From positions 946 to 64,945 of the forward strand of contig MFYJ01000001.1 of assembly GCA_001787755.1 (NCBI GenBank): a stretch of DNA of 64,000 nucleotides, in the 5' to 3' direction. How positions within the stretch are numbered: position 1 is the stretch's first letter; each line of letters opens with the position of its first letter. Both the position numbers and the translations under genes were made by a program. The notes under the pieces were generated by a model, which was not told the DNA's origin, ran no database searches, and saw only the letters and a list, made by a program, of their open reading frames with translations. This DNA comes from Candidatus Peribacteria bacterium RIFOXYB1_FULL_54_35 (GTDB lineage Bacteria > Patescibacteriota > Gracilibacteria > Peribacterales > Peribacteraceae). Of the stretch, positions 1,868 through 44,138 are shown piece after piece.

Positions 1868-2737
1868 ATGTTCTACCTTCTTGCTGTGAGCTCCATGCTC
1901 GGCTACGCGCTCCAGAACGCACTCCTCGTGCGATATGCACGGCGTATGGACGGGCTGAGCCTGGCCTTCTACCGGAATATCTCCTTCCTCGTCACCCTCC
2001 TTCCACTCCTCTTCCTCTCTTCACCGCAGGAAATTGCCGAAGTACTCTCACACTGGAAAGTGCTCCTCATCTCCGGCATTGCCGGAGGGGTGTACCTTGC
2101 CATCGTCTTCGAGTCCTATCACTTCATTGCCATTGGTGTAGGCCACACTATCAAACAAGCAGCCATCAACATCCTCATGGCCCTCGCAGGTCTCCTGCTC
2201 TACGAAGAAGTGCTCCCTGCAATGGAATTCCTCCTCGTTGCGGTTGTCGTCCTTTCCTGCATCTGGCTTTCTATGCAGCGGGTGGATGCACCCCACATCT
2301 CGCAGAAACTCCTCCTTGGCATCTCGCTCTCTCTCCTCTCTGCTTTTCCCGTCATCATCACAAAAATCATCCTCACAGATATGAGCCGTGCAGTTGATCC
2401 TCTCGCAAGCGGCTACTTCTGGGAAGCGGCAATAGGCATTGCATCTGCCGTGACCATCCTGCTGCGATGGGTGCTCCTCCGGAGGGGACTGACACGCATC
2501 GACTCGCGTACCATGCTCGGCATCACTGCCGCGGCCTCCCCTACTCTCATCGGAACAGGATGTTATGCACTCGCTCTGAGCATGGGGCCCATCGCCATCG
2601 TGAGCGCCATAGGAAGCGGATCACTGATTGTCACGGCTCTCTGTGGCTGGCTCTGGTACCACGAGAAACTGAGCCGTTCCCAGTGGGCAGCGCTCGTGTT
2701 CATACTGGTGGCAATTGCGTGGCTGAAATTTGTGTAA
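1868..2737 (+). CDS. EamA/DMT family transporter
   Basis: 289 aa, ~10 hydrophobic segments, two-repeat DMT pattern ending in W-Y-H-E-K-L. Confidence 0.8.
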   Translation: MFYLLAVSSMLGYALQNALLVRYARRMDGLSLAFYRNISFLVTLLPLLFLSSPQEIAEVLSHWKVLLISGIAGGVYLAIVFESYHFIAIGVGHTIKQAAINILMALAGLLLYEEVLPAMEFLLVAVVVLSCIWLSMQRVDAPHISQKLLLGISLSLLSAFPVIITKIILTDMSRAVDPLASGYFWEAAIGIASAVTILLRWVLLRRGLTRIDSRTMLGITAAASPTLIGTGCYALALSMGPIAIVSAIGSGSLIVTALCGWLWYHEKLSRSQWAALVFILVAIAWLKFV

Positions 2738-2791
2738 GCGAGTAGCGGTTAGCGTGTAGCGACTAGCCGCTAATCGCTAATCGCAAGCCGT
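2735..2791. repeat. 7-nt periodic intergenic palindrome between convergent genes
   Basis: gtagcgg ttagcgt gtagcga ... ccgctaa tcgctaa tcgcaag. Confidence 0.7.
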
Positions 2792-2792
2792 T

Positions 2793-4010
2793 CTATTTAT
2801 CCCACCGTATCGCCTCCATGGGACTTAAGCTCGCAGCTTTCTTCGCAGGGACAATGCCGAAGAGGAGACCTGTCCCGAGCGCCATGAGCACTGCTGCAAG
2901 TAAAGCTGGGAAAGAGAGAACAAAGGGAACATACCCGATATACTTACTCGCTGCTGCAGCAAGGATCATTCCAAGTGTCATCCCCCCAATGATGCCGATA
3001 CTCCCGCCAACAAGCGTGAGCGTTACAGCCTCTATGAGGAACTGGAGCAGAATGTCGTGGCCACGTGCACCCACAGCCTTGCGCAACCCGATCTCCCTCG
3101 TCCGCTCCGCTACGGAGACAAGCATGATATTCATAATGCCGATGCCGCCGACGAGAAGAGAAACCCCGGCAATGAGCGCAATGAACACCGTGAGCCCGAG
3201 CGTGACCTGACCGACAATCTTCGTCGCTTGCTCAGCGGAACGGGCACGGAAATCATCTTTATCGTAGTCGTTCTCAGGATTGTCTATGCCATGGCGCTGG
3301 CGCAGAAGCAACGTGACGTCTGCAAGTGCAAGTTCGTCATCCTCTACCGCCTGCATCGTCATGTAGCTCAGCTCCTTCTGTCCTGTTGCAGAGCGCGCAG
3401 TGGTAAATGGAACAAAGACAAAGGTATCGAGATCCTGCATGAGAGCAGAACCTACACTCTGCATCACACCCACCACAGTATAGGAGCGACTCCCTATCTG
3501 CACGCGTTCACCGAGCGGACTTCTTTGGCCAAAGAGATCCTCCGCTGCCTCATACCCAAGCACTGTCACAGATCTCGCCGCTTTTTCATCGGCTTCGGAA
3601 AGGAGTCTCCCCTCCCCCAATTTGAGCCCATAGTTCGCAAAAAAGTTGGATGTCGTCCCGAATATATTTGGCGATAACTCTTCCGTTCCATACTGCACTT
3701 TCTCAGTAATAAATATTACCGGCGCAACACTCTTTACAGTGGTGAGCCCGGTTATCGCCTCGTAATCGCCGTAGGTCACGCTATCGAGCGTGCGGCCGAA
3801 TTTCTCGTAGCCTGTTGGATAGAGCTCAATGAGGTTGTTGCTGAACGATTCGACCTGATCGAGAATATAGCGCTCAAAGCTGCGCCCAACGGAGACCATG
3901 AGCACCACGGAACCGACTCCTATGATGATGCCGAGCATCGTGAGGAGTGATCGCATTCTGTGAGCGACAATTGCCCTGTGAGCCGTTTGGATGGTGTCGC
4001 GAAGGAGCAT
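2793..4010 (-). CDS. MacB-family ABC transporter permease
   Basis: RSLLTMLGIIIGV and GGIGIMNIMLVSVAERTREIGLRKAVGA motifs. Confidence 0.95.
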   Translation of the reverse strand: MLLRDTIQTAHRAIVAHRMRSLLTMLGIIIGVGSVVLMVSVGRSFERYILDQVESFSNNLIELYPTGYEKFGRTLDSVTYGDYEAITGLTTVKSVAPVIFITEKVQYGTEELSPNIFGTTSNFFANYGLKLGEGRLLSEADEKAARSVTVLGYEAAEDLFGQRSPLGERVQIGSRSYTVVGVMQSVGSALMQDLDTFVFVPFTTARSATGQKELSYMTMQAVEDDELALADVTLLLRQRHGIDNPENDYDKDDFRARSAEQATKIVGQVTLGLTVFIALIAGVSLLVGGIGIMNIMLVSVAERTREIGLRKAVGARGHDILLQFLIEAVTLTLVGGSIGIIGGMTLGMILAAAASKYIGYVPFVLSFPALLAAVLMALGTGLLFGIVPAKKAASLSPMEAIRWDK

Positions 4011-37682: not shown

Positions 37683-40439
37683 ATGCCTCGTTTTGTTCCT
37701 CCCCACGGGTTTGTTCTCAGCACTCTGGCACTCCTCCTGCTCAGTCATCCTGCACACATCAGTGCACAGAGAGCAGAGGAAATTATTGCCTTGCGGCCAG
37801 GAGGAATTTTCGAGATCTATGCTGACACCGTCACACCTGATCCAAAAATCAGCTGGGTATTCAGCAAAGGAAGCACGTTCGTCCAGGCTGACAGAGGACC
37901 TCTGTTTAGTATCCGTCCAACGGAGGAAGGGGAGTACTTCCTCACGGGGGAAGTTGCTGATGCACAAGACACCCCGCTCCGAAAGCTTTTTAAAATCCAG
38001 ATGCGGGCAGACGCGCCCATCATCTCTCAGTCAGACACGGAAGGCGATACGCTCGTGCGTGTCTCTCCTACGCCGAATGAAACAAACATGTCCATCCTGA
38101 GAGGCGAACAGCGTGTCGTACGACTCGACATCATTCATCCGGATATCGAACAGCTGGCTCTCGACATTAATGCGGAGAAGGACCAAAGCAACGACGGTGA
38201 TCCCTTCAATGACAATATTCTCACGAACAGCGTCTTTAAGTCAGGACGCGGCAGCTTGCACATCTGGCTGACTCCCAGAATGCTGAACCAAACGTTCCTA
38301 TTGGTTGCACGGCTCAAAACTGGAGCGCTGGTTACGCAGAAAATTCAGGTGATCTCAGAAGACTACGAAGAAATACTGAAACAGAAAATAGAGCAGGAAG
38401 AGCAGGCGCGGAGAGACCGTACGACTATCGAATCGAAACTTGTTGGCGAACGGACATACCGACTCTCAGTCGATGCGGAGGATGGAGTGATAACAGAGAC
38501 AGTGTTTCACCATTGGGATTTCGGTGACGGCACCCAAAGTCTGATGGATGAACCGGAACATCAATTTCCCGAATCCCGCATGTACCAGGTGCGCGTTTCA
38601 GTGCGTGACGCCTATACAGGAAAAGAGATCCTTCTGGTACAGAAACCCTTTGAAGTTTCTGAGGGCACCATGCCAGAAATAACAGAACAAACACCTGGGA
38701 AAGAAGCAATGAATCCGGAAGCCGTTCAGGAATCAGCGAAGCAAACGAGCTACATTGTCGCAACAGTAATCAAGGCTCTCGTCATTCTCGCCATCTCGAT
38801 AGGCATTGGGATTCTCGCTGTGTTTCTGTTTGCAAAAATGAAAGGAAAATCCCTGCAGAAGTCGTTCGAAGAGGCTGAAAAGAAACTTGTGAAAGAACCT
38901 GGCACACGTACTCCGCCTCTGCAACTTGAAAAGCAAGAGGAGGAGAAAAAAGAGGAAGAAGACGAGAGGGAAAAGGAGAAAGAAAAAGAAAAGGCCCCGC
39001 TCGAAACCCCGGAGATCAACAGACAGGTCCCGAGCTGGCTTGCACCTTCGCCGCAAATAAGCAAAGCAGGAGAGAAAGGAGGAAAAGCTCCCTTAGATAC
39101 CTCTGTCCCCCCTCCCCCACCTCCTCCTCCTATTGCACAAAAAACTACAACCTCAGAGCACATACCCGGTACGTCGCAATCTGCAGTATCCGGAGGGCAG
39201 GGTGTACCGCAGGCAGCCGCACAGACTCCCACAGGCGGAGCTCCTGTCCCTCCATGGCTTCAGGGAGCAGTGACAACACCTGCAAAAGCTGCGCAACCTC
39301 TTTCTTCGGAGACACCACAAACAAGACCCACCGCCTCAGAACAAAAGACCACACCCACTTCGACAGGAACTGCAACTCCCCCCTGGTTAGTGGGAGCACA
39401 GACTCTTGAGGAACGTCACAAAGGAAGCACTCCCACAGAACCTGCATCTGCATCCCCTGCCACCCCCAAAACAGAACTACCCGCCCCTGCAAAAAATGAA
39501 GCATCTGTTCCACCCTGGCTGCAACAGACGCCAACTCCACCGCCCCCTGCCGCTGCAGAGCAGAAGATGAGAGCCACCACACCTCCTCCTGCACCATCAA
39601 TACAACATGCGGAGAACACTCCTCCATGGCTGCAGGGAGCAGGAGTAAAAACCACCACTCCTGCAACAAACACCCCCAGAAACCAAGGTGGGACGAGCGC
39701 AACAGGTAATATCTCAGCACAAAAAAATCAGACTGGCGCAAATACAGGAAGCACATCCCAACCCCCACTCCCTCCAACAACAAACCAAACCAGTGACGCA
39801 ATACAAGTGCAGCAAGCAGCAGATAGTGCAGCAGCAGAAAGCACACACTCGAAAGAAGAACGCGAACGGGAGCGCAAGCGCCGCAAACGTCAGCGGTACC
39901 GCGCGAACAAGCGCACACGAGAGCAAGAGGGGGAACAGACACAAGTACAGGCTGCACCTGCACCCACGGAATCCCCCGCAGTAAAGGATGCTCCCCCGCC
40001 GAAGAAGGAAACGCAGACACCACCATGGCTGCAGCACACACCTCCTTCTTCGAAACAAACACAGGAAACAATACCGCCACCGTCACCTCCCGCACCCCCC
40101 GCGCAGAGAGAGAATGCATCTGTCCCCCCCTGGCTGCAGGGAGTGCAGGCACAGAGCACTCAGAAACCACCTGCTAATTTCCCTCCGTCTGAGACCCCTC
40201 CTGCAACCAAGTCCACTCCTCTCCCACCTCCACCTCCCCAGGGAAATGCCCCCATTCCTGAATGGCTCAAGGGAACGAGCGCACCAACACCCCCTCCTCC
40301 GACTCAGCAACCAATACAACAAACCGGAAGTGATGATGATGTGAAGTTCGTGATCAGTGCGGACAGCGTGGAGGGGCAGCCTCCCCAGCCACATACACCG
40401 GGAGATGCGATTCCGCCTGCAGAGAAACAGGGAGAATAG
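37683..40439 (+). CDS. PKD-domain membrane protein with long Pro/Thr/Gln-rich tail
   Basis: Signal peptide, WDFGDG PKD motif, single TM, low-complexity tail with 8 PxWL motifs. Confidence 0.85.
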   Translation: MPRFVPPHGFVLSTLALLLLSHPAHISAQRAEEIIALRPGGIFEIYADTVTPDPKISWVFSKGSTFVQADRGPLFSIRPTEEGEYFLTGEVADAQDTPLRKLFKIQMRADAPIISQSDTEGDTLVRVSPTPNETNMSILRGEQRVVRLDIIHPDIEQLALDINAEKDQSNDGDPFNDNILTNSVFKSGRGSLHIWLTPRMLNQTFLLVARLKTGALVTQKIQVISEDYEEILKQKIEQEEQARRDRTTIESKLVGERTYRLSVDAEDGVITETVFHHWDFGDGTQSLMDEPEHQFPESRMYQVRVSVRDAYTGKEILLVQKPFEVSEGTMPEITEQTPGKEAMNPEAVQESAKQTSYIVATVIKALVILAISIGIGILAVFLFAKMKGKSLQKSFEEAEKKLVKEPGTRTPPLQLEKQEEEKKEEEDEREKEKEKEKAPLETPEINRQVPSWLAPSPQISKAGEKGGKAPLDTSVPPPPPPPPIAQKTTTSEHIPGTSQSAVSGGQGVPQAAAQTPTGGAPVPPWLQGAVTTPAKAAQPLSSETPQTRPTASEQKTTPTSTGTATPPWLVGAQTLEERHKGSTPTEPASASPATPKTELPAPAKNEASVPPWLQQTPTPPPPAAAEQKMRATTPPPAPSIQHAENTPPWLQGAGVKTTTPATNTPRNQGGTSATGNISAQKNQTGANTGSTSQPPLPPTTNQTSDAIQVQQAADSAAAESTHSKEERERERKRRKRQRYRANKRTREQEGEQTQVQAAPAPTESPAVKDAPPPKKETQTPPWLQHTPPSSKQTQETIPPPSPPAPPAQRENASVPPWLQGVQAQSTQKPPANFPPSETPPATKSTPLPPPPPQGNAPIPEWLKGTSAPTPPPPTQQPIQQTGSDDDVKFVISADSVEGQPPQPHTPGDAIPPAEKQGE

Positions 40440-40484
40440 TTGGCAGAGCGGTGTGTTGCATTTACTATTGCGCCCGCTACAACG

Positions 40485-40505
40485 TGGCGAGCTTAGCTCA
40501 GTTGG
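40485..40505 (+). repeat. duplicate of tRNA-His 5' end
   Basis: tggcgagcttagctcagttgg identical to 40579-40599. Confidence 0.9.
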
Positions 40506-40579
40506 CCTAGTCCCGCGCAGCGGGACGTGATAAAAAGAGGCCGCTCGGTGAAAATCGCCACAATCTCTTTCACACTTAT

Positions 40580-40657
40580 GGCGAGCTTAGCTCAGTTGGT
40601 TAGAGCGGATGGTTGTGGTCCATCAGGTCAAGGGTTCGATCCCCTTAGCTCGCCCCA
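40580..40657 (+). tRNA. tRNA-His (GTG)
   Basis: G-1:C73, acceptor GCGAGCT/AGCTCGC, anticodon arm GATGG-TTGTGGT-CCATC, T arm AAGGG-TTCGATC-CCCTT, CCA. Confidence 0.97.
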
Positions 40658-41082
40658 TCCGTCTTCGCGGTGTGAGGGCTACGAAGTTCCGTTCGTTGTT
40701 CCCGTAATGATCATAGCGATACCGCTTCGACGCGATTGGGGCTTGTGTTATAGTTCGACACTATGCATTACGTCTACATTCTCGAGTCTGCACTCGATGG
40801 CAGGCACTGGTACATCGGCGTAACAAGCAACCTACAGAAACGCCTGGAAGAACATAATGCGGGTGATTCTCTGCACACGAACAAATTCAAACCATGGAAA
40901 CTGAAGAGCTACACAGCCTTTACTACACGAGAACAAGCTGAAAAATTTGAGCGGTACCTGAAATCCAATTCAGGACGCGTGTTCGCAAAAAGGCACTTGT
41001 GAGCCGCGGCGTAGCGGTATCGCAAAGCTGGACCCAAGAATGATGGCATACGCATCAAATGCCCTCACGCCGCGAAGCCGGG
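40658..41082 (+). mobile_element. GIY-YIG cassette bounded by nested inverted repeats
   Basis: Outer IR 40658-40679/41061-41082 (19/22); inner IR 40716-40734/41005-41023 (17/19); flanked by 21-bp direct repeats. Confidence 0.7.
40763..41002 (+). CDS. small GIY-YIG nuclease (UPF0213/SLX1-like), 79 aa
   Basis: MHYVYIL...WYIGVT.NL.KRL.EHN.G...FERYLKS; extended -10 TGtTATAGT 8 nt upstream. Confidence 0.93.
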   Translation: MHYVYILESALDGRHWYIGVTSNLQKRLEEHNAGDSLHTNKFKPWKLKSYTAFTTREQAEKFERYLKSNSGRVFAKRHL

Positions 41083-41103
41083 CGATCCCCTTAGCTCGCC
41101 CCA
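41083..41103 (+). repeat. duplicate of tRNA-His 3' end
   Basis: cgatccccttagctcgcccca identical to 40637-40657. Confidence 0.92.
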
Positions 41104-41165
41104 GTCACTCTCAATGTAAATTTTACTTGTGGTGCACTCATCCATCACTATAATGCACCAAACTC

Positions 41166-42209
41166 ATGGCACTGGACGCTTTCAGATACGAGGGTTCCGG
41201 AACACACGCAGATGGCTTCCATCTCGGCATTTTCAATGGTGAAAGAACGGAGGGGGAAAACCCCCGGAAGAACCGGAACGACTGGGTACATGCGGAGGAA
41301 GCACACCGCCTGCACGCAATGGGCACGAGAGAACCCCCGCAGAGCATCTTGGATGCCATGCACCACTACGGGCCGGATCTCGATGCGGCAGGAGACAGCC
41401 GCGTGCGATATTTGATAAGTGAGGAAGACGCTCGAGGTCAGCCGCCAACGCGCTTCACGGAAGCTCTGCAATACTTCACTGAGCAGTCAGCAGAAGACGC
41501 TATCGATGCTCCGCTGGAAATACGGCAGGCAACCAGGCGCAGGCTCGGGATAGATGTCCCTGAGCCTGTAGTGGGTGCGCGTGAGAATCTCGCCCTCTTC
41601 ACTATGACAGGAAGCCCCGCAGACATAGCTCTTGTCTACACCAAACCTGCTCCTGTGGACATCGGGGAGCTCATGGATCTTCCTGCTGCGCAGCGTGTTG
41701 CATACCTAAACGGAATATACCGGAGAAGACTCCTCCTGACTGGAGGTTTCTCTCTCACCGAGGACAGGAATTTCCGGGATGCAATCCTCTCTCTCGCACG
41801 TACCATCAGCAGAGTGCGGGGGACGATCCCCGCCAATGCCCTCACAGACGGAGACGCACTCCGGGAGCTTCTGCTCGATCATTTTGGTACCAGTGAAGAG
41901 CTCATTGCAGCACTGAAGCGTTACCAGCCGGACAGTCCTCTCACCCGCAGCAGACAACCGGACGTGCTCCTTTCCCCCAGGGGAGCCATCGCCAATCCAG
42001 CATTCTTCCCCGATGCGACACTCTCACTCGCAGAATGGGATCTTGATCAGGAAGAAGCCGGCAGACGCGCTTCTGGCGTTCTCTTCGATGTTCTCCAGCA
42101 CAAACTTGAGAACGGAGATTCCAATTTCGGGGGAAACAGACGGGCTCTGGATCTGGAGTACCCACCGCGCGCAGAAGAACATGAAAGGAGGAGAAAGCGG
42201 GCCGCGTAG
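41166..42209 (+). CDS. hypothetical protein
   Basis: 347-aa ORF, TATAAT 11 nt upstream, no recognised motif. Confidence 0.7.
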   Translation: MALDAFRYEGSGTHADGFHLGIFNGERTEGENPRKNRNDWVHAEEAHRLHAMGTREPPQSILDAMHHYGPDLDAAGDSRVRYLISEEDARGQPPTRFTEALQYFTEQSAEDAIDAPLEIRQATRRRLGIDVPEPVVGARENLALFTMTGSPADIALVYTKPAPVDIGELMDLPAAQRVAYLNGIYRRRLLLTGGFSLTEDRNFRDAILSLARTISRVRGTIPANALTDGDALRELLLDHFGTSEELIAALKRYQPDSPLTRSRQPDVLLSPRGAIANPAFFPDATLSLAEWDLDQEEAGRRASGVLFDVLQHKLENGDSNFGGNRRALDLEYPPRAEEHERRRKRAA

Positions 42210-42247
42210 TTGCTCTCTCTCCACGATTCAGGTATTCATTGGCTTCC

Positions 42248-42439
42248 ATGCGAACCTTCCGCGAACGTATCGTGCCTCCCATTGATGGCATCCGCTGCAG
42301 CCAGGAATCAGACGGAGGCTTCACCGTGACGCACGGGCCGGCGACCATCACATTCTCCCCACTCGAGATGGCACAGATAGAGAGAGGACTTGTTTCCACT
42401 GAAGCTGTGCGAGCACTCATTATGGGAGTACTGGGGTAA
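42248..42439 (+). CDS. small hypothetical protein
   Basis: Short ORF following the previous gene. Confidence 0.4.
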   Translation: MRTFRERIVPPIDGIRCSQESDGGFTVTHGPATITFSPLEMAQIERGLVSTEAVRALIMGVLG

Positions 42440-42788
42440 CAGAAGAACTTGAAAAAACACCGGGAGCGCAGCGACAGAGGATGCAATTCCGGCAGAGCCA
42501 ACACATCTCGCTGAATTAGGAATTCCCGTATTGCAGAAAAGACCACGGGGGGAGCACAGCCTTAGTAAGAAGCATGCGCACTGGAAAATACATGAGTTAT
42601 CAAGTACTTGAGCCTTTTCCATTGAGACTCAGTGTGCTAGCGTGGGCTTCACGTGCAAGGAACCGTCTATCGCACTTACACATGTCCGAAGCGCAGTACA
42701 GAACCCCCATCCCTCTTCGTTCATCTCCACTCCGTTCCGCTGAAACTCCGCCGGGATCTCCCCAGTCACTGTCCATCCCATACCCCCC

Positions 42789-44138
42789 ATGACACAATCT
42801 GTGTATCGAACACCGAAAGGCACCCACGACGTCCTCCCGGAAGACCACATCTTCATGACGTACATCAAGAAAGCCGTCCGCCACCGCGCGAGGCAGGCCG
42901 GCTACAAGCGCATAGAGACGCCAATGTTTGAGAACCGCACGATCTTCGAGCGCGGCATTGGTGAGCACACGGACATTGTGGAAAAAGAACTCTTCATGGT
43001 CTCCTCCAAGCACGAAGATGAAGACAATGGCCCGGAGTTCGCCCTGCGTCCCGAGTTCACCGCCAGCATCTGCCGCAGCTATATAGAACATGGCATGCAG
43101 CAGCTCCCGCAACCCGTGGAACTCTATGCCATCGGACCCTGCTTCCGTCATGACCGTCCGCAGAAGGGGCGCTACCGCCAGTTCAACCAGTTCGACTTCG
43201 AGATCATCGGGCTCAAAGACCCCAGCTTGGACGCACAGCTCATCCATGTGCTGAGCAAAATTTTGGATGACCTCAAAATCCTCAAGCGTCTCCGCCTGCA
43301 GATCAACAACATCGGCACCCCCGAGAGCCGCAAAGCGTACCTGGATGCCCTGAAAGACTTCTTCATCGGAAAAGAGCGCAATCTGCCGGCCCTGGACCGC
43401 TCGCGCCTGGAGACCAACCCCTTGCGCCTTCTCGACTCCAAGGAAGAGGATACGCAGATCCTGCTCAAGAGCGCACCGACACTGGACCAGTTCCTGGATG
43501 ACGAGAGCAAGCAGTACCACGAAACCGTGCTGGAGTACCTTGGAGCACTTGGCATCCAGTACGAAGAGAACTCCTCACTTGTACGTGGTCTCGACTACTA
43601 CACACAGACAGTCTTTGAGTACTGGGACGAAACGACAGGCGCACAGAACGCAGTGGGAGGCGGAGGAAGGTACGACCGTCTCATGGAGCTCCTCGGCGGG
43701 AAAGACACGCCGGGCATCGGTTTCGCCTGCGGCATGGAACGCATCGCCTGGCAGATGGCACAGACAGGCGTGAAGCCGCCGAACAAGGACCAGGTGGACG
43801 TGTTCGTCGCCCAGCTCGGACCGGAAGCGAAGAAAACCTGTCTCATGCTCATCTCGCAGCTGCGCGAAAAGGGCGTACACACTATCGGCGCCCTCGGAGA
43901 AGCAAGCCTGAAGAGCCAGATGCGCCTGGCTGACAAGTTTGGCGCCCGCTACACGCTCCTCCTGGGACAGATGGAAGTGAAGGAAGGCGTGATTATTCTC
44001 CGCGACATGGCAGCCGGGAAGCAGAAGCAGATCCCCTTCAAAAATGCCATTCCGGAAGTCACCAAGCTCATCGGGGAAAGGAACCTAGATACCTACACCA
44101 TCAAGGATAAGATTGGGGACACGGTGGATGAGGACTAG
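42789..44138 (+). CDS. hisS: histidine--tRNA ligase
   Basis: PKGTHD, ALRPEFTA, FRHDRPQKGRYRQFNQ, LVRGLDYYT, GGGRYD. Confidence 0.97.
   Translation: MTQSVYRTPKGTHDVLPEDHIFMTYIKKAVRHRARQAGYKRIETPMFENRTIFERGIGEHTDIVEKELFMVSSKHEDEDNGPEFALRPEFTASICRSYIEHGMQQLPQPVELYAIGPCFRHDRPQKGRYRQFNQFDFEIIGLKDPSLDAQLIHVLSKILDDLKILKRLRLQINNIGTPESRKAYLDALKDFFIGKERNLPALDRSRLETNPLRLLDSKEEDTQILLKSAPTLDQFLDDESKQYHETVLEYLGALGIQYEENSSLVRGLDYYTQTVFEYWDETTGAQNAVGGGGRYDRLMELLGGKDTPGIGFACGMERIAWQMAQTGVKPPNKDQVDVFVAQLGPEAKKTCLMLISQLREKGVHTIGALGEASLKSQMRLADKFGARYTLLLGQMEVKEGVIILRDMAAGKQKQIPFKNAIPEVTKLIGERNLDTYTIKDKIGDTVDED

Follow-up and report, generated by a model that had tools for sequence, protein, structure and literature searches.

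A Peribacteria tRNA-His gene bracketed by copies of its own ends: probable independent insertions of two small tRNA-targeting elements

How does an intact tRNA gene come to stand between partial copies of its own two ends? The question is raised by a tRNA-His gene in a stretch of 64,000 nucleotides (nt), here called the window, from contig MFYJ01000001.1 (positions 946 to 64,945, forward strand) of Candidatus Peribacteria bacterium RIFOXYB1_FULL_54_35 (assembly GCA_001787755.1), in which a copy, or stub, of the tRNA 5′ end lies upstream of the gene and a stub of its 3′ end lies downstream, beyond a gene for a small GIY-YIG nuclease. Comparison of this locus with the rest of the genome and with the genomes of relatives leads us to the reading, to which we assign a probability of roughly 70%, that the gene was entered by two independent small elements, mobile or formerly mobile, that target tRNA genes, and that each insertion healed itself. 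Each insert is flanked by two copies of the tRNA end that it entered, giving one complete tRNA and one stub.

The tRNA-His locus and the independence of its two sides

The locus consists of the following parts.

40440-40468, forward: promoter-like sequence TTGGCA-17-TACTAT upstream of the 5′ stub, from a consensus scan only
40485-40505, forward: 5′ stub, equal to tRNA-His -2 to +19 (21 of 21 nt match 40579-40599, spacing 94 nt)
40506-40578, forward: 5′ element (A-type), non-coding, 73 nt, between the 5′ stub and tRNA position -2
40581-40657, forward: intact tRNA-His(GTG), called by ARAGORN and Rfam (65.2 bits), with encoded CCA and G-1 at 40580
40658-41082, forward: GIY-YIG cassette, 425 nt, from the CCA of the tRNA to the 3′ stub
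40727-40754, forward: promoter-like sequence TCGACG-16-TATAGT with TG before the -10 box, 9 nt 5′ of the ATG of the nuclease gene, from a consensus scan only
40763-41002, forward: stand-alone GIY-YIG nuclease gene of Slx1/UPF0213 type (PF01541), 79 amino acids (aa)
41083-41103, forward: 3′ stub, equal to tRNA-His positions 57-77 including CCA (21 of 21 nt match 40637-40657, spacing 446 nt)

A repeat search over 40000-41600 recovered what an earlier note on this DNA had reported, namely perfect 21-nt copies of the tRNA 5′ end 94 nt upstream and of its 3′ end 446 nt downstream. The 5′ stub holds the 5′ strand of the acceptor stem, the 5′ strand of the D-stem and the D-loop through G18G19, while the 3′ stub holds the 3′ half of the TψC loop, the 3′ strands of the T-stem and acceptor stem, the discriminator and CCA, after which the native flank follows. 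Summed, the two stubs do amount to a tRNA-His without its central region (positions 20-56 are absent), the hairpin GTCCCGC-GCA-GCGGGAC does follow the 5′ stub (40510-40526), and the nuclease surmised at the locus is indeed there, as an open reading frame (ORF) of 79 aa with a GIY-YIG domain (PF01541, E = 2.1e-17). The mature tRNA-His is uninterrupted, and an Rfam scan of 39500-42500 at E ≤ 1 returned the tRNA and one chance match to a long non-coding RNA (E = 0.59), with no group I intron.

The hexamers TTGCAT and TACAAC, noted as promoter-like ahead of the 5′ stub, exist (40456-40461 and 40478-40483, with a 16-nt spacer); the consensus scan picks TTGGCA-17-TACTAT instead, which is probably the original promoter of tRNA-His. 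The region 40440-40468 is orthologous to the flank directly 5′ of an uninterrupted tRNA-His in G001, a genome of the same genus (G000 denotes the present genome, and G001, G003 and so on those of relatives), and because this flank of G001 aligns upstream of the stub, the 5′ stub marks the original start of the gene. On the 5′ side of tRNA-His the two genomes differ in length by 94 nt, the size of the element plus one copy of the repeat. By eye, TAnAnT boxes lie 8-12 nt 5′ of the stub at other stub-bearing loci, and likewise 5′ of stub-less tRNAs.

Such an arrangement might be produced in the assembly by mis-joined reads of strain variants, and the genome is metagenome-assembled from a population with strain variants: in run X20, contigs that fit the window are accompanied by junctions of the cargo form of the locus found in G003 (described below), so that both forms are present in one run. 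Four public runs from three studies, no run among them being flagged as a possible source of the window, supplied contigs for comparison with 40200-41400. The junction of promoter, stub and element is bridged by contigs in X18 (40391-40539) and X14, the passage from stub through element to the start of the tRNA by contigs in X14 and X20 (40485-40599), and that from the tRNA through the nuclease gene and 3′ stub into the flank by one X18 contig (40570-41400); none of the listed contigs of the four runs holds the whole stub-to-stub stretch. Because contigs from four runs and three studies bridge every junction, misassembly, which had been named as a possible refutation, is excluded, and with the same architecture recurring in G003 and in other genera an assembly artefact can be practically discounted.

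Could a single event have produced both stubs? The earlier note favoured a cassette of element, tRNA and nuclease gene that replaced the middle of the resident tRNA-His and left the original ends as stubs, and the exactness of both stubs in G000 and G003, together with their summing to a tRNA that lacks positions 20-56, is what such an event would give. It would also require that the two stubs always occur together. Our tRNA-His survey covered 20 loci of relatives, with an exact copy of at least 11 nt counted as a stub, and gave the following distribution.

Both stubs: G000, G003
5′ stub only: G004, G010, G018 (two tandem units), G013, G012
3′ stub only: G017, G007 (12 nt)
3′ stub with a different, 7-nt 5′ stub (the latter by eye): G002
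Neither stub: 10 loci

Single stubs thus occur at the tRNA-His loci of at least seven relatives, contrary to that requirement. Within the present genome both stubs are found at 6 of the 45 tRNAs, against 5.3 expected under independence, and the two inserts belong to families with different distributions, the 5′ element being present without any GIY-YIG match (E ≤ 1e-5) in G004 (six element matches), G018, G055, G058, G082 and G101. From the single-stub relatives, the chance level of co-occurrence and the different family distributions, we conclude that the two sides are independent; the existence of single-stub relatives and of distinct element families supports the two independent insertions that had been mentioned as the alternative.

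The locus of G003, 93% identical over the region, has moreover been altered on each side separately. Its 5′ stub contains a 39-nt hairpin element after position 12, and its 3′ stub is followed by a 1.29-kilobase insert (locus L013, G003:C5:4244-7946, about oriented positions 2204-3517) that begins by repeating the cassette's initial 66 nt, has ...CCCCA as its last letters ahead of the flank common to both genomes, and carries, in the place of the nuclease, genes for a 245-aa HTH_17/MerR protein and for a 92-aa protein with a weak match to DUF4325 (STAS-like). Taken with the points above, these further insertions make a single replacement very improbable. What survives of the proposal is that insertions into a tRNA gene restored the gene, that one of them bears a nuclease, and that a stub stands behind the original promoter; what does not is a single whole-tRNA element that replaced the middle of the gene.

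Stubs and hairpin elements at other tRNA genes

The genome (1.56 megabases (Mb), 16 contigs, 97.85% complete) has 45 tRNA genes, all with encoded CCA, and each was scored against the 220 nt that precede it and the 520 nt that follow it. A copy of the tRNA's own 5′ end is found upstream of 16 of them (12-19 nt long, starting 78-151 nt before the tRNA) and a copy of its own 3′ end downstream of 15 (13-53 nt long, ending at CCA, with a gap of 76-422 nt between tRNA and stub), so that 25 tRNAs have at least one stub and 20 have none. When each tRNA was instead scored on the flanks of the others, copies were found in 20 of 1980 (5′) and 14 of 1980 (3′) combinations, or about 1%, which excludes chance as the source of the own-locus stubs. 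The sequence 5′ of the stub is dissimilar to that 5′ of the tRNA at 15 of the 16 loci with a 5′ stub, the exception being a tandem array.

The 3′ stubs might be read as scars of integrases, that is, as attR-type partial tRNAs left by larger islands or prophages that have decayed to 76-425 nt. Such integration is classically recognised by a repeat that reaches from the TψC or anticodon loop as far as the 3′ end of the tRNA, as set out in passages of PMC9897764, and the genome does have one tyrosine recombinase gene (a single PF00589 match, C7:256823, on another contig). Yet no integrase lies in or beside any insert, the inserts of 76-425 nt have inverted repeats of their own and common termini, a genome of 1.56 Mb has such stubs at 15 of its 45 tRNAs, the usual 3′-end integration would not be expected to leave mirror-image 5′ stubs at 16 tRNAs, and the gene in the cassette is a nuclease. 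We regard an origin as integrase scars as quite unlikely.

The 5′ element at tRNA-His is one of a family, termed A-type, composed of CC(C/T)AG, a hairpin of 7 base pairs (bp), an A-rich box, GCTCG and a T/C-rich tail of ~27 nt that adjoins the tRNA; here these are CCTAG, the hairpin at 40510-40526, the box GTGATAAAAAG at 40527-40537, GCTCGG at 40543-40548 and a tail that abuts tRNA position -2. An alignment of 12 copies (A2) was used to build a covariance model (R1). Five of the seven hairpin pairs are altered on both sides in A2, and 0 of 500 shuffles reach the score, a control that favours the 7-bp hairpin in that the latter was supplied by hand from the same sequences; RNAalifold on A2 recovered only four pairs, the inner stem being misaligned in some rows. 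The best match of R1 is the present locus (62.3 bits), and no Rfam family matches the element at E ≤ 1.

Matches to R1 were found in 56 of 101 family genomes, with five in the present genome and up to 10 copies per genome, many of them in tandem at a spacing of 92-96 nt. When the best match of each genome was inspected, 30 of 30 loci lay just 5′ of a tRNA on the same strand, with at least 12 tRNA identities represented. An exact stub of at least 12 nt precedes the tRNA by 89-99 nt (once 132 nt) at 22 of these loci, and by eye the stubs of the other eight are truncated, carry nested palindromic inserts or have 1-3 mismatches. In 10 single-unit loci other than tRNA-His the repeat reaches 0-5 nt 5′ of +1 and is about 17-22 nt long, and it measures 21-23 nt at tRNA-His loci. 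The 5′ element can hence be described as short, non-coding, multi-copy and flanked by a repeat of ~17-23 nt; no terminal inverted repeats were seen in it by eye.

Presence and copy number of A-type units differ between the present genome and its congener.

tRNA-His: present in G000, absent from G001
tRNA-Lys-CUU and tRNA-Asn: decayed remnants in G000, two units each in G001
tRNA-Arg-UCU: one unit in G000, two units in G001
tRNA-Met: one unit in G000, one unit in G001
tRNA-Thr-GGU: two units in G000, one unit in G001

Distal units of the arrays have more mismatches and nested inserts than units adjacent to the tRNA. In G076, three units have one already diverged stub in common, from which it follows that arrays also grow by copying of units. 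At the present locus a loose end of nine letters, in which the element tail TCACACTTA is joined to the start of the stub (window position 40485), is found in contigs of all four runs and suggests a tandem two-unit array of stub and element, or an excised circle, in the population; the summed contig depth over 40487-40568 exceeds that of the left flank in all four runs and that of the right flank in three (not in X20).

These data also bear on the view that the architecture is maintained by the host, the stub and hairpin leader (and perhaps the trailers) having a function in the pre-tRNA, be it promoter supply, processing or regulation, and the identity of the stub being kept by selection. A constant distance from element to +1 and a covarying hairpin in 56 of 101 genomes and for 12 or more tRNA identities would be expected under such selection, as would the agreement of the stub with the first 19 nt of the local tRNA at the tRNA-His of five genera despite intergeneric differences, held though the element has diverged to 71-75% identity; the A-rich box also resembles an extended -10 box in our reading of the alignment. 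Presence and absence within a genus are harder to reconcile with it (G001 has no element at tRNA-His and two copies at Lys-CUU, Asn and Arg-UCU), as are the 20 of 45 tRNAs that are stub-less, the decay of stubs (8 of 30 are mismatched, truncated or carry nested palindromes, and distal units are the more decayed) and the variable copy number of the arrays. Host selection seems to us an unlikely explanation, if one to be kept in view. A variant 5′ element upstream of tRNA-His at L019 (G018) and L029 (G012) contains GCTCTAACCAACT, the reverse complement of the D-arm sequence AGTTGGTTAGAGC, and by this complementarity the leader could pair with the stub or with the D-arm of the tRNA.

Other small elements accompany the stubs. 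Further hairpin families adjoin them, with a CCTTCG end facing 5′ stubs and its reverse complement CGAAGG facing 3′ stubs, and some copies of these families lie far from any tRNA. Hairpin elements are also nested within stubs, between positions 7 and 8, 11 and 12, or 12 and 13. Hairpins of the form GCC-TTCG-stem-loop-stem-CTAC-GGC-CGRCAAG, with a 4 × 4 internal loop TTCG/CTAC and covarying stems (for example C6:13155, C7:6237 and C10:14197), give 28 matches to a regular expression in G000, about 22 of them distinct, and roughly half of the distinct ones lie within 350 nt of a tRNA. A nearly identical palindrome of 19-20 nt, CCTGCCTGCCGNCAGGCAG(G), is nested at tRNA positions 7-11 in 5′ stubs of three genera (L143, the distal stub of G000 Thr-GGU; L029, G012 His; L160, G088 Ala).

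Several further observations concern individual tRNA genes of G000. At L144 (G000:C7:115300-116000, reverse strand), 3′ of an intact tRNA-Met(CAU), a second tRNA-Met copy is split in the D-loop, its positions 1-19 being separated from positions 24-76 by a 53-nt A-type-like core, which has the appearance of an insertion that entered a redundant copy and left no healing repeat; a 5′ stub with a nested 39-nt hairpin is also present at this locus. Downstream of tRNA-Gly-UCC (G000:C7:42690-42870), 18 N stand within a seemingly tandem-repeated insert before a 13-nt 3′ stub, and the assembly is probably collapsed or gapped there. Beside two CAT tRNAs lies a tRNA-Ile with anticodon TAT (G000:C7:328771-328847), by whose presence the AUA codon may be read without a lysidine tRNA. 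In the window, tRNA-His has as neighbours a secreted-looking, very Pro/Thr-rich 918-aa protein with one PKD domain (37683-40439), a 347-aa ORF with no Pfam match (41166-42209) and, 1.7 kilobases 3′ of the tRNA, a putative HisRS-like ORF (42789-44138) named from its translation.

The cassette, its nuclease and the nuclease family

The cassette that follows tRNA-His has terminal inverted repeats (about 40659-40679 with 41061-41081), and its fold as single-stranded DNA pairs both ends (z = -3.9, with 0 of 100 shuffles as good). An inner inverted repeat of 19 nt, 89% complementary (40716-40734 with 41005-41023), brackets the ORF, and the position of the promoter-like sequence close before the ATG makes a leaderless nuclease transcript possible. 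No recombinase was found in the cassette, GIY-YIG being the only family in the 79-aa ORF (two short overlapping ORFs were left unscanned). The insert is flanked by the 21-nt repeat of the tRNA 3′ segment (57-77), as are integrase-type islands.

Residues 1-72 of the 79 are covered by the PF01541 match, and no separate DNA-binding domain was found in the protein, which the GIY-YIG domain all but fills. The catalytic Tyr, Tyr, Arg, His/Asn and Glu are kept: Y5, Y17, R27, H31, N32 and E63 are invariant among 11 homologues. Searched against the Protein Data Bank (PDB), the family profile matched 1zg2 (UPF0213 protein BH0048, E = 7e-10), SLX1 (7cq2, E = 3e-7) and 1ywl (E = 7e-4), with no I-TevI or UvrC chain among its seven matches at E ≤ 1; since UPF0213 and SLX1, and neither I-TevI nor UvrC, are its closest relatives of solved structure, the nuclease falls in the minimal stand-alone Slx1-like branch. 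A search for homologues of similar length (proteins of 43-139 aa only, longer forms being left out) gave 21, of 76-101 aa. No NCBIfam family matched the nuclease, its PADLOC matches reached E = 0.008 only, and PHROGs gave one weak match to a 'GIY-YIG homing endonuclease' (E = 6e-4).

Like a free-standing homing endonuclease gene of the SegB or I-TevI type, the cassette is polymorphic at one conserved site, tRNA-His, being present in G000, in G003 (where the nuclease protein is identical), in G017 and in G002, and absent from G001 and others. The orthologous cassettes of G017 and G002 are 70% and 66% identical in nucleotide sequence, and the stubs after them repeat the 3′ end of their own tRNA, which in G017 differs from that of G000 at 5 of 21 positions. 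The stub was therefore made from, or copied along with, the local tRNA, or else the two copies have been kept alike.

The genome encodes 11 nuclease paralogues, eight of which lie 31-244 nt 3′ of a tRNA on the same strand (His, Gly-CCC, Tyr, Arg-CCU, Gln-UUG, Ala-GGC, Lys-UUU and Pro-CGG). Four of these eight loci (His, Tyr, Pro-CGG and Lys-UUU) have a 3′ stub within the scanned 520 nt, and at Gln-UUG a copy of the tRNA 3′ end lies 1134 nt away. The second example in the window, with the same 3′ architecture over 1276-1778, is tRNA-Tyr.

1694-1778, reverse: tRNA-Tyr
ATG at 1541, within ORF 1305-1661, reverse: GIY-YIG paralogue, 46% identical
1276-1292, reverse: 3′ stub of 17 nt with one mismatch, 401 nt after the tRNA

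Placement behind tRNA genes extends well beyond Peribacteria. A pattern scan of one genome per species gave 503 GIY-YIG relatives, and among the best 80 loci, which were kept, 59 have a tRNA (55) or transfer-messenger RNA (tmRNA; 4) gene within 400 nt upstream on the same strand; at 10 of the remaining 21 the upstream sequence is too short to judge, giving 59 of 70 assessable loci. The 80 loci are from Pseudomonadota (45), Peregrinibacteriota (10), Acidobacteriota (8), Verrucomicrobiota (8) and three other phyla (one each), with six lacking a phylum. A tree of 87 GIY-YIG proteins is weakly resolved (78 columns, three starred branches). Mapped on it, tRNA identity needs 40 changes, fewer than in any of 300 shuffles of the labels (mean 53, minimum 48), in a sample whose related genomes share labels; by amino acid, the associated tRNA changes at least 30 times on this weakly resolved tree. 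There is only a hint here of partial target fidelity with frequent switching of tRNA.

Proposed mechanism and relation to known systems

Comparison establishes the anatomy of the locus, the independence of its sides, the recurrence of both inserts across the genome and their families, presence and absence between close relatives, nesting, and tandem arrays. How the inserts arrived can be sketched as follows. On the 3′ side, the nuclease would recognise or cut the DNA of tRNA genes, at the TψC loop and 3′ end, and repair of the break would place the cassette at the cut; the 3′ stub would then be either a long duplication of the target or the 3′ part of the recipient's own gene, left on the far side of the break. 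We infer a driving role of the nuclease in the 3′ insertions, and cut sites at the TψC loop and 3′ end, by analogy with SegB of phage T4, which needs a TψC motif and cuts at tRNA 3′ ends, since the repeat here spans the TψC loop to CCA. A structure-specific mode, in which the nuclease would cut extruded cloverleaf or cruciform tRNA-gene DNA as SLX1 does branched DNA, is a speculation suggested by the lack of a DNA-binding domain and by the mirror symmetry of the 5′ and 3′ insertions.

On the 5′ side, the hairpin element, which does not depend on the GIY-YIG family, would have entered after G18G19 of the D-loop, flanked by the repeat of -2 to +19, and the native promoter would now read through the 5′ stub and element into the tRNA. 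The repeats may arise by staggered cuts, by repair that copies from a filled allele, or otherwise. Two specific models were rejected. RNA-templated repair from the 5′ end of the mature tRNA, suggested by an apparent start of the repeats at exactly +1, does not accord with repeats that run 0-5 nt past +1 (at the 10 single-unit non-His loci), with repeats that hold a 20-28 nt leader lacking a plausible transcription start, or with a genome that has no RVT_1; and a fixed staggered cut fits most 5′ repeats (~17-23 nt) yet fails for 3′ repeats of 13-53 nt and for those 5′ repeats that contain leader. Neither Y1 transposase nor RVT_1 nor Cas1 was found in the 97.85% complete genome; DDE transposases were not searched.

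A number of points weigh against insertion by two mobile elements. The evidence is wholly comparative. Unlike SegB and I-TevI, the protein of 79 aa lacks a separate domain for DNA binding, and sequence-specific homing by it is not assured. The 5′ element's fixed geometry and the covariation of its hairpin over 56 genomes could reflect a host function. The 3′ repeats vary in length (13-27, 42 and 53 nt), unlike the products of a fixed staggered cut, and the 5′ repeat includes 20-28 nt of leader at G004 Met and G090 His, which fits no simple model. Outside Peribacteria, finally, the stubs are nearly absent: a 3′ stub score of at least 11 was reached at only 6 of the 59 tRNA- or tmRNA-linked loci, comprising three in Peribacteria, one 12-nt copy in a Caedibacter record and two that are really second tRNA genes, and for L040 and L100 the scores of shuffled controls were lower by a few points only. 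The stub is for this reason to be seen as a feature of Peribacteria rather than as a general product of the nuclease family.

A wider proposal is that stand-alone nucleases of the Slx1/UPF0213 type are the engines of a widespread class of selfish cassettes, not described before, whose homing targets in several phyla are tRNA and tmRNA genes at their 3′ ends, with recognition of the TψC region or of the cloverleaf or cruciform shape of tRNA-gene DNA, and that in Peribacteria the cassettes and one or more independent hairpin elements aimed at the D-loop insert with long, healing duplications, leaving at most tRNA genes ordered stub arrays that record past insertions. We put it forward tentatively, as a possibility that we rather doubt.

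Partial tRNA copies beside integrase-bearing islands, and a T4 GIY-YIG homing endonuclease aimed at tRNA genes, are already known. In the main texts of open papers we found no report of small GIY-YIG genes behind bacterial chromosomal tRNAs or of tRNAs bracketed by 5′ and 3′ stubs, none of integrase-less miniature inserts at both tRNA ends or at more than half of the tRNAs of a genome, and none of the D-loop element family or of stand-alone Slx1-like GIY-YIG genes placed downstream of tRNA or tmRNA genes in several phyla; nor do such stubs or cassettes appear in the Peribacteria genome paper under the terms searched.

The tRNA genes of this 1.56-Mb genome are essential and mostly single-copy, and more than half have been entered by small elements without loss, the long repeat bounded by the tRNA end making each insertion harmless. 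If the proposals above are true, the minimal bacterial Slx1-like GIY-YIG proteins (UPF0213/COG2827), which are common and have solved structures, gain a testable function; the idea drawn from SegB, of a GIY-YIG enzyme aimed at the tRNA TψC motif, extends from one phage to the chromosomes of several phyla; and a new D-loop-specific non-coding element is defined, with a covariance model and 56 host genomes. In practical terms, stubs can mislead tRNA annotation and break short-read assemblies at tRNA loci, and stub arrays, being ordered, could be used to mark strains of Peribacteria in groundwater.

Among known systems, MITEs (miniature inverted-repeat transposable elements), repetitive extragenic palindromic (REP)-like repeats and hairpin-loop-targeting insertion sequences are small palindromic or non-autonomous elements of bacteria. 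The elements described here resemble MITE and REP elements in being short, non-coding, hairpin-forming and multi-copy, and in being nested in one another and in hairpin loops. They differ in their direct repeats, which are 13-27 nt or longer and bounded by the tRNA end, and the 5′ element further departs from MITEs in having no terminal inverted repeats and in its fixed orientation and distance to the tRNA. No transposase partner for a MITE-like 5′ element emerged from tyrosine recombinase, Y1 and RVT_1 scans of the genome. Duplication of repeats in clustered regularly interspaced short palindromic repeat (CRISPR) arrays and integration of casposons by Cas1 offer another comparison, in that each insertion brings a long target duplication. 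The stub arrays are like CRISPR arrays in their seemingly one-ended growth, the distal units of stub and element being more decayed, and unlike them in that the genome has no Cas1, that the 'spacers' are copies of one element family, and that one array at least (G076) has grown through copies of a unit with an already diverged stub.

Dada DNA transposons of eukaryotes target genes for tRNA and for small nuclear RNA (snRNA), according to passages of PMC3706591, and have in common with the present elements a strict specificity for small-RNA genes; unlike them, Dada elements are eukaryotic and target multicopy genes. Integration of islands into tRNA genes by integrases gives attL and attR sites with one complete and one partial tRNA (PMC9897764, in the passages covered). 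The displaced tRNA segment is likewise restored here, leaving the gene intact, and the direct repeat likewise runs from a loop to the tRNA 3′ end; the inserts, by contrast, have no integrase, measure 65-425 nt rather than kilobases, affect both ends of the tRNA (the 5′ end in the D-loop), occur at 25 of 45 tRNAs and in some cases form tandem arrays.

The protein itself is closest to UPF0213/COG2827 (PDB 1zg2 and 1ywl), with which it has the minimal GIY-YIG domain in common (E = 7e-10 to 1zg2). For these stand-alone Slx1-like proteins a 2006 GIY-YIG survey describes links to tRNA enzymes, with a TrmH-like tRNA methyltransferase as a fusion partner and COG4123 as a partner in operons or fusions, and in the passages covered it reports neither adjacency to tRNA genes nor mobility (PMC1564403). 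The same survey groups the I-TevI type with UvrC rather than with Slx1.

The nearest precedent is SegB, a free-standing GIY-YIG homing endonuclease encoded in the tRNA gene cluster of phage T4. In the passages of PMC2330249 that bear on it, recognition requires the TψC motif GGTTCRANTCC, tRNA genes are cleaved at their 3′ ends, in most cases immediately 3′ of CCAR, the gene spreads by repair of the break, and an I-TevI-like domain organisation with a C-terminal DNA-binding part is suggested. Unlike this phage protein of I-TevI type, the one found here is chromosomal, 79 aa long, made up of the catalytic domain only and Slx1/UPF0213-like; and whereas those passages describe no partial tRNA duplications, the cassette here bears inverted repeats and leads into a tRNA 3′ stub. 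As with SegB, a GIY-YIG gene stands among tRNA genes, the cassette starting after CCA and the repeat starting in the TψC loop.

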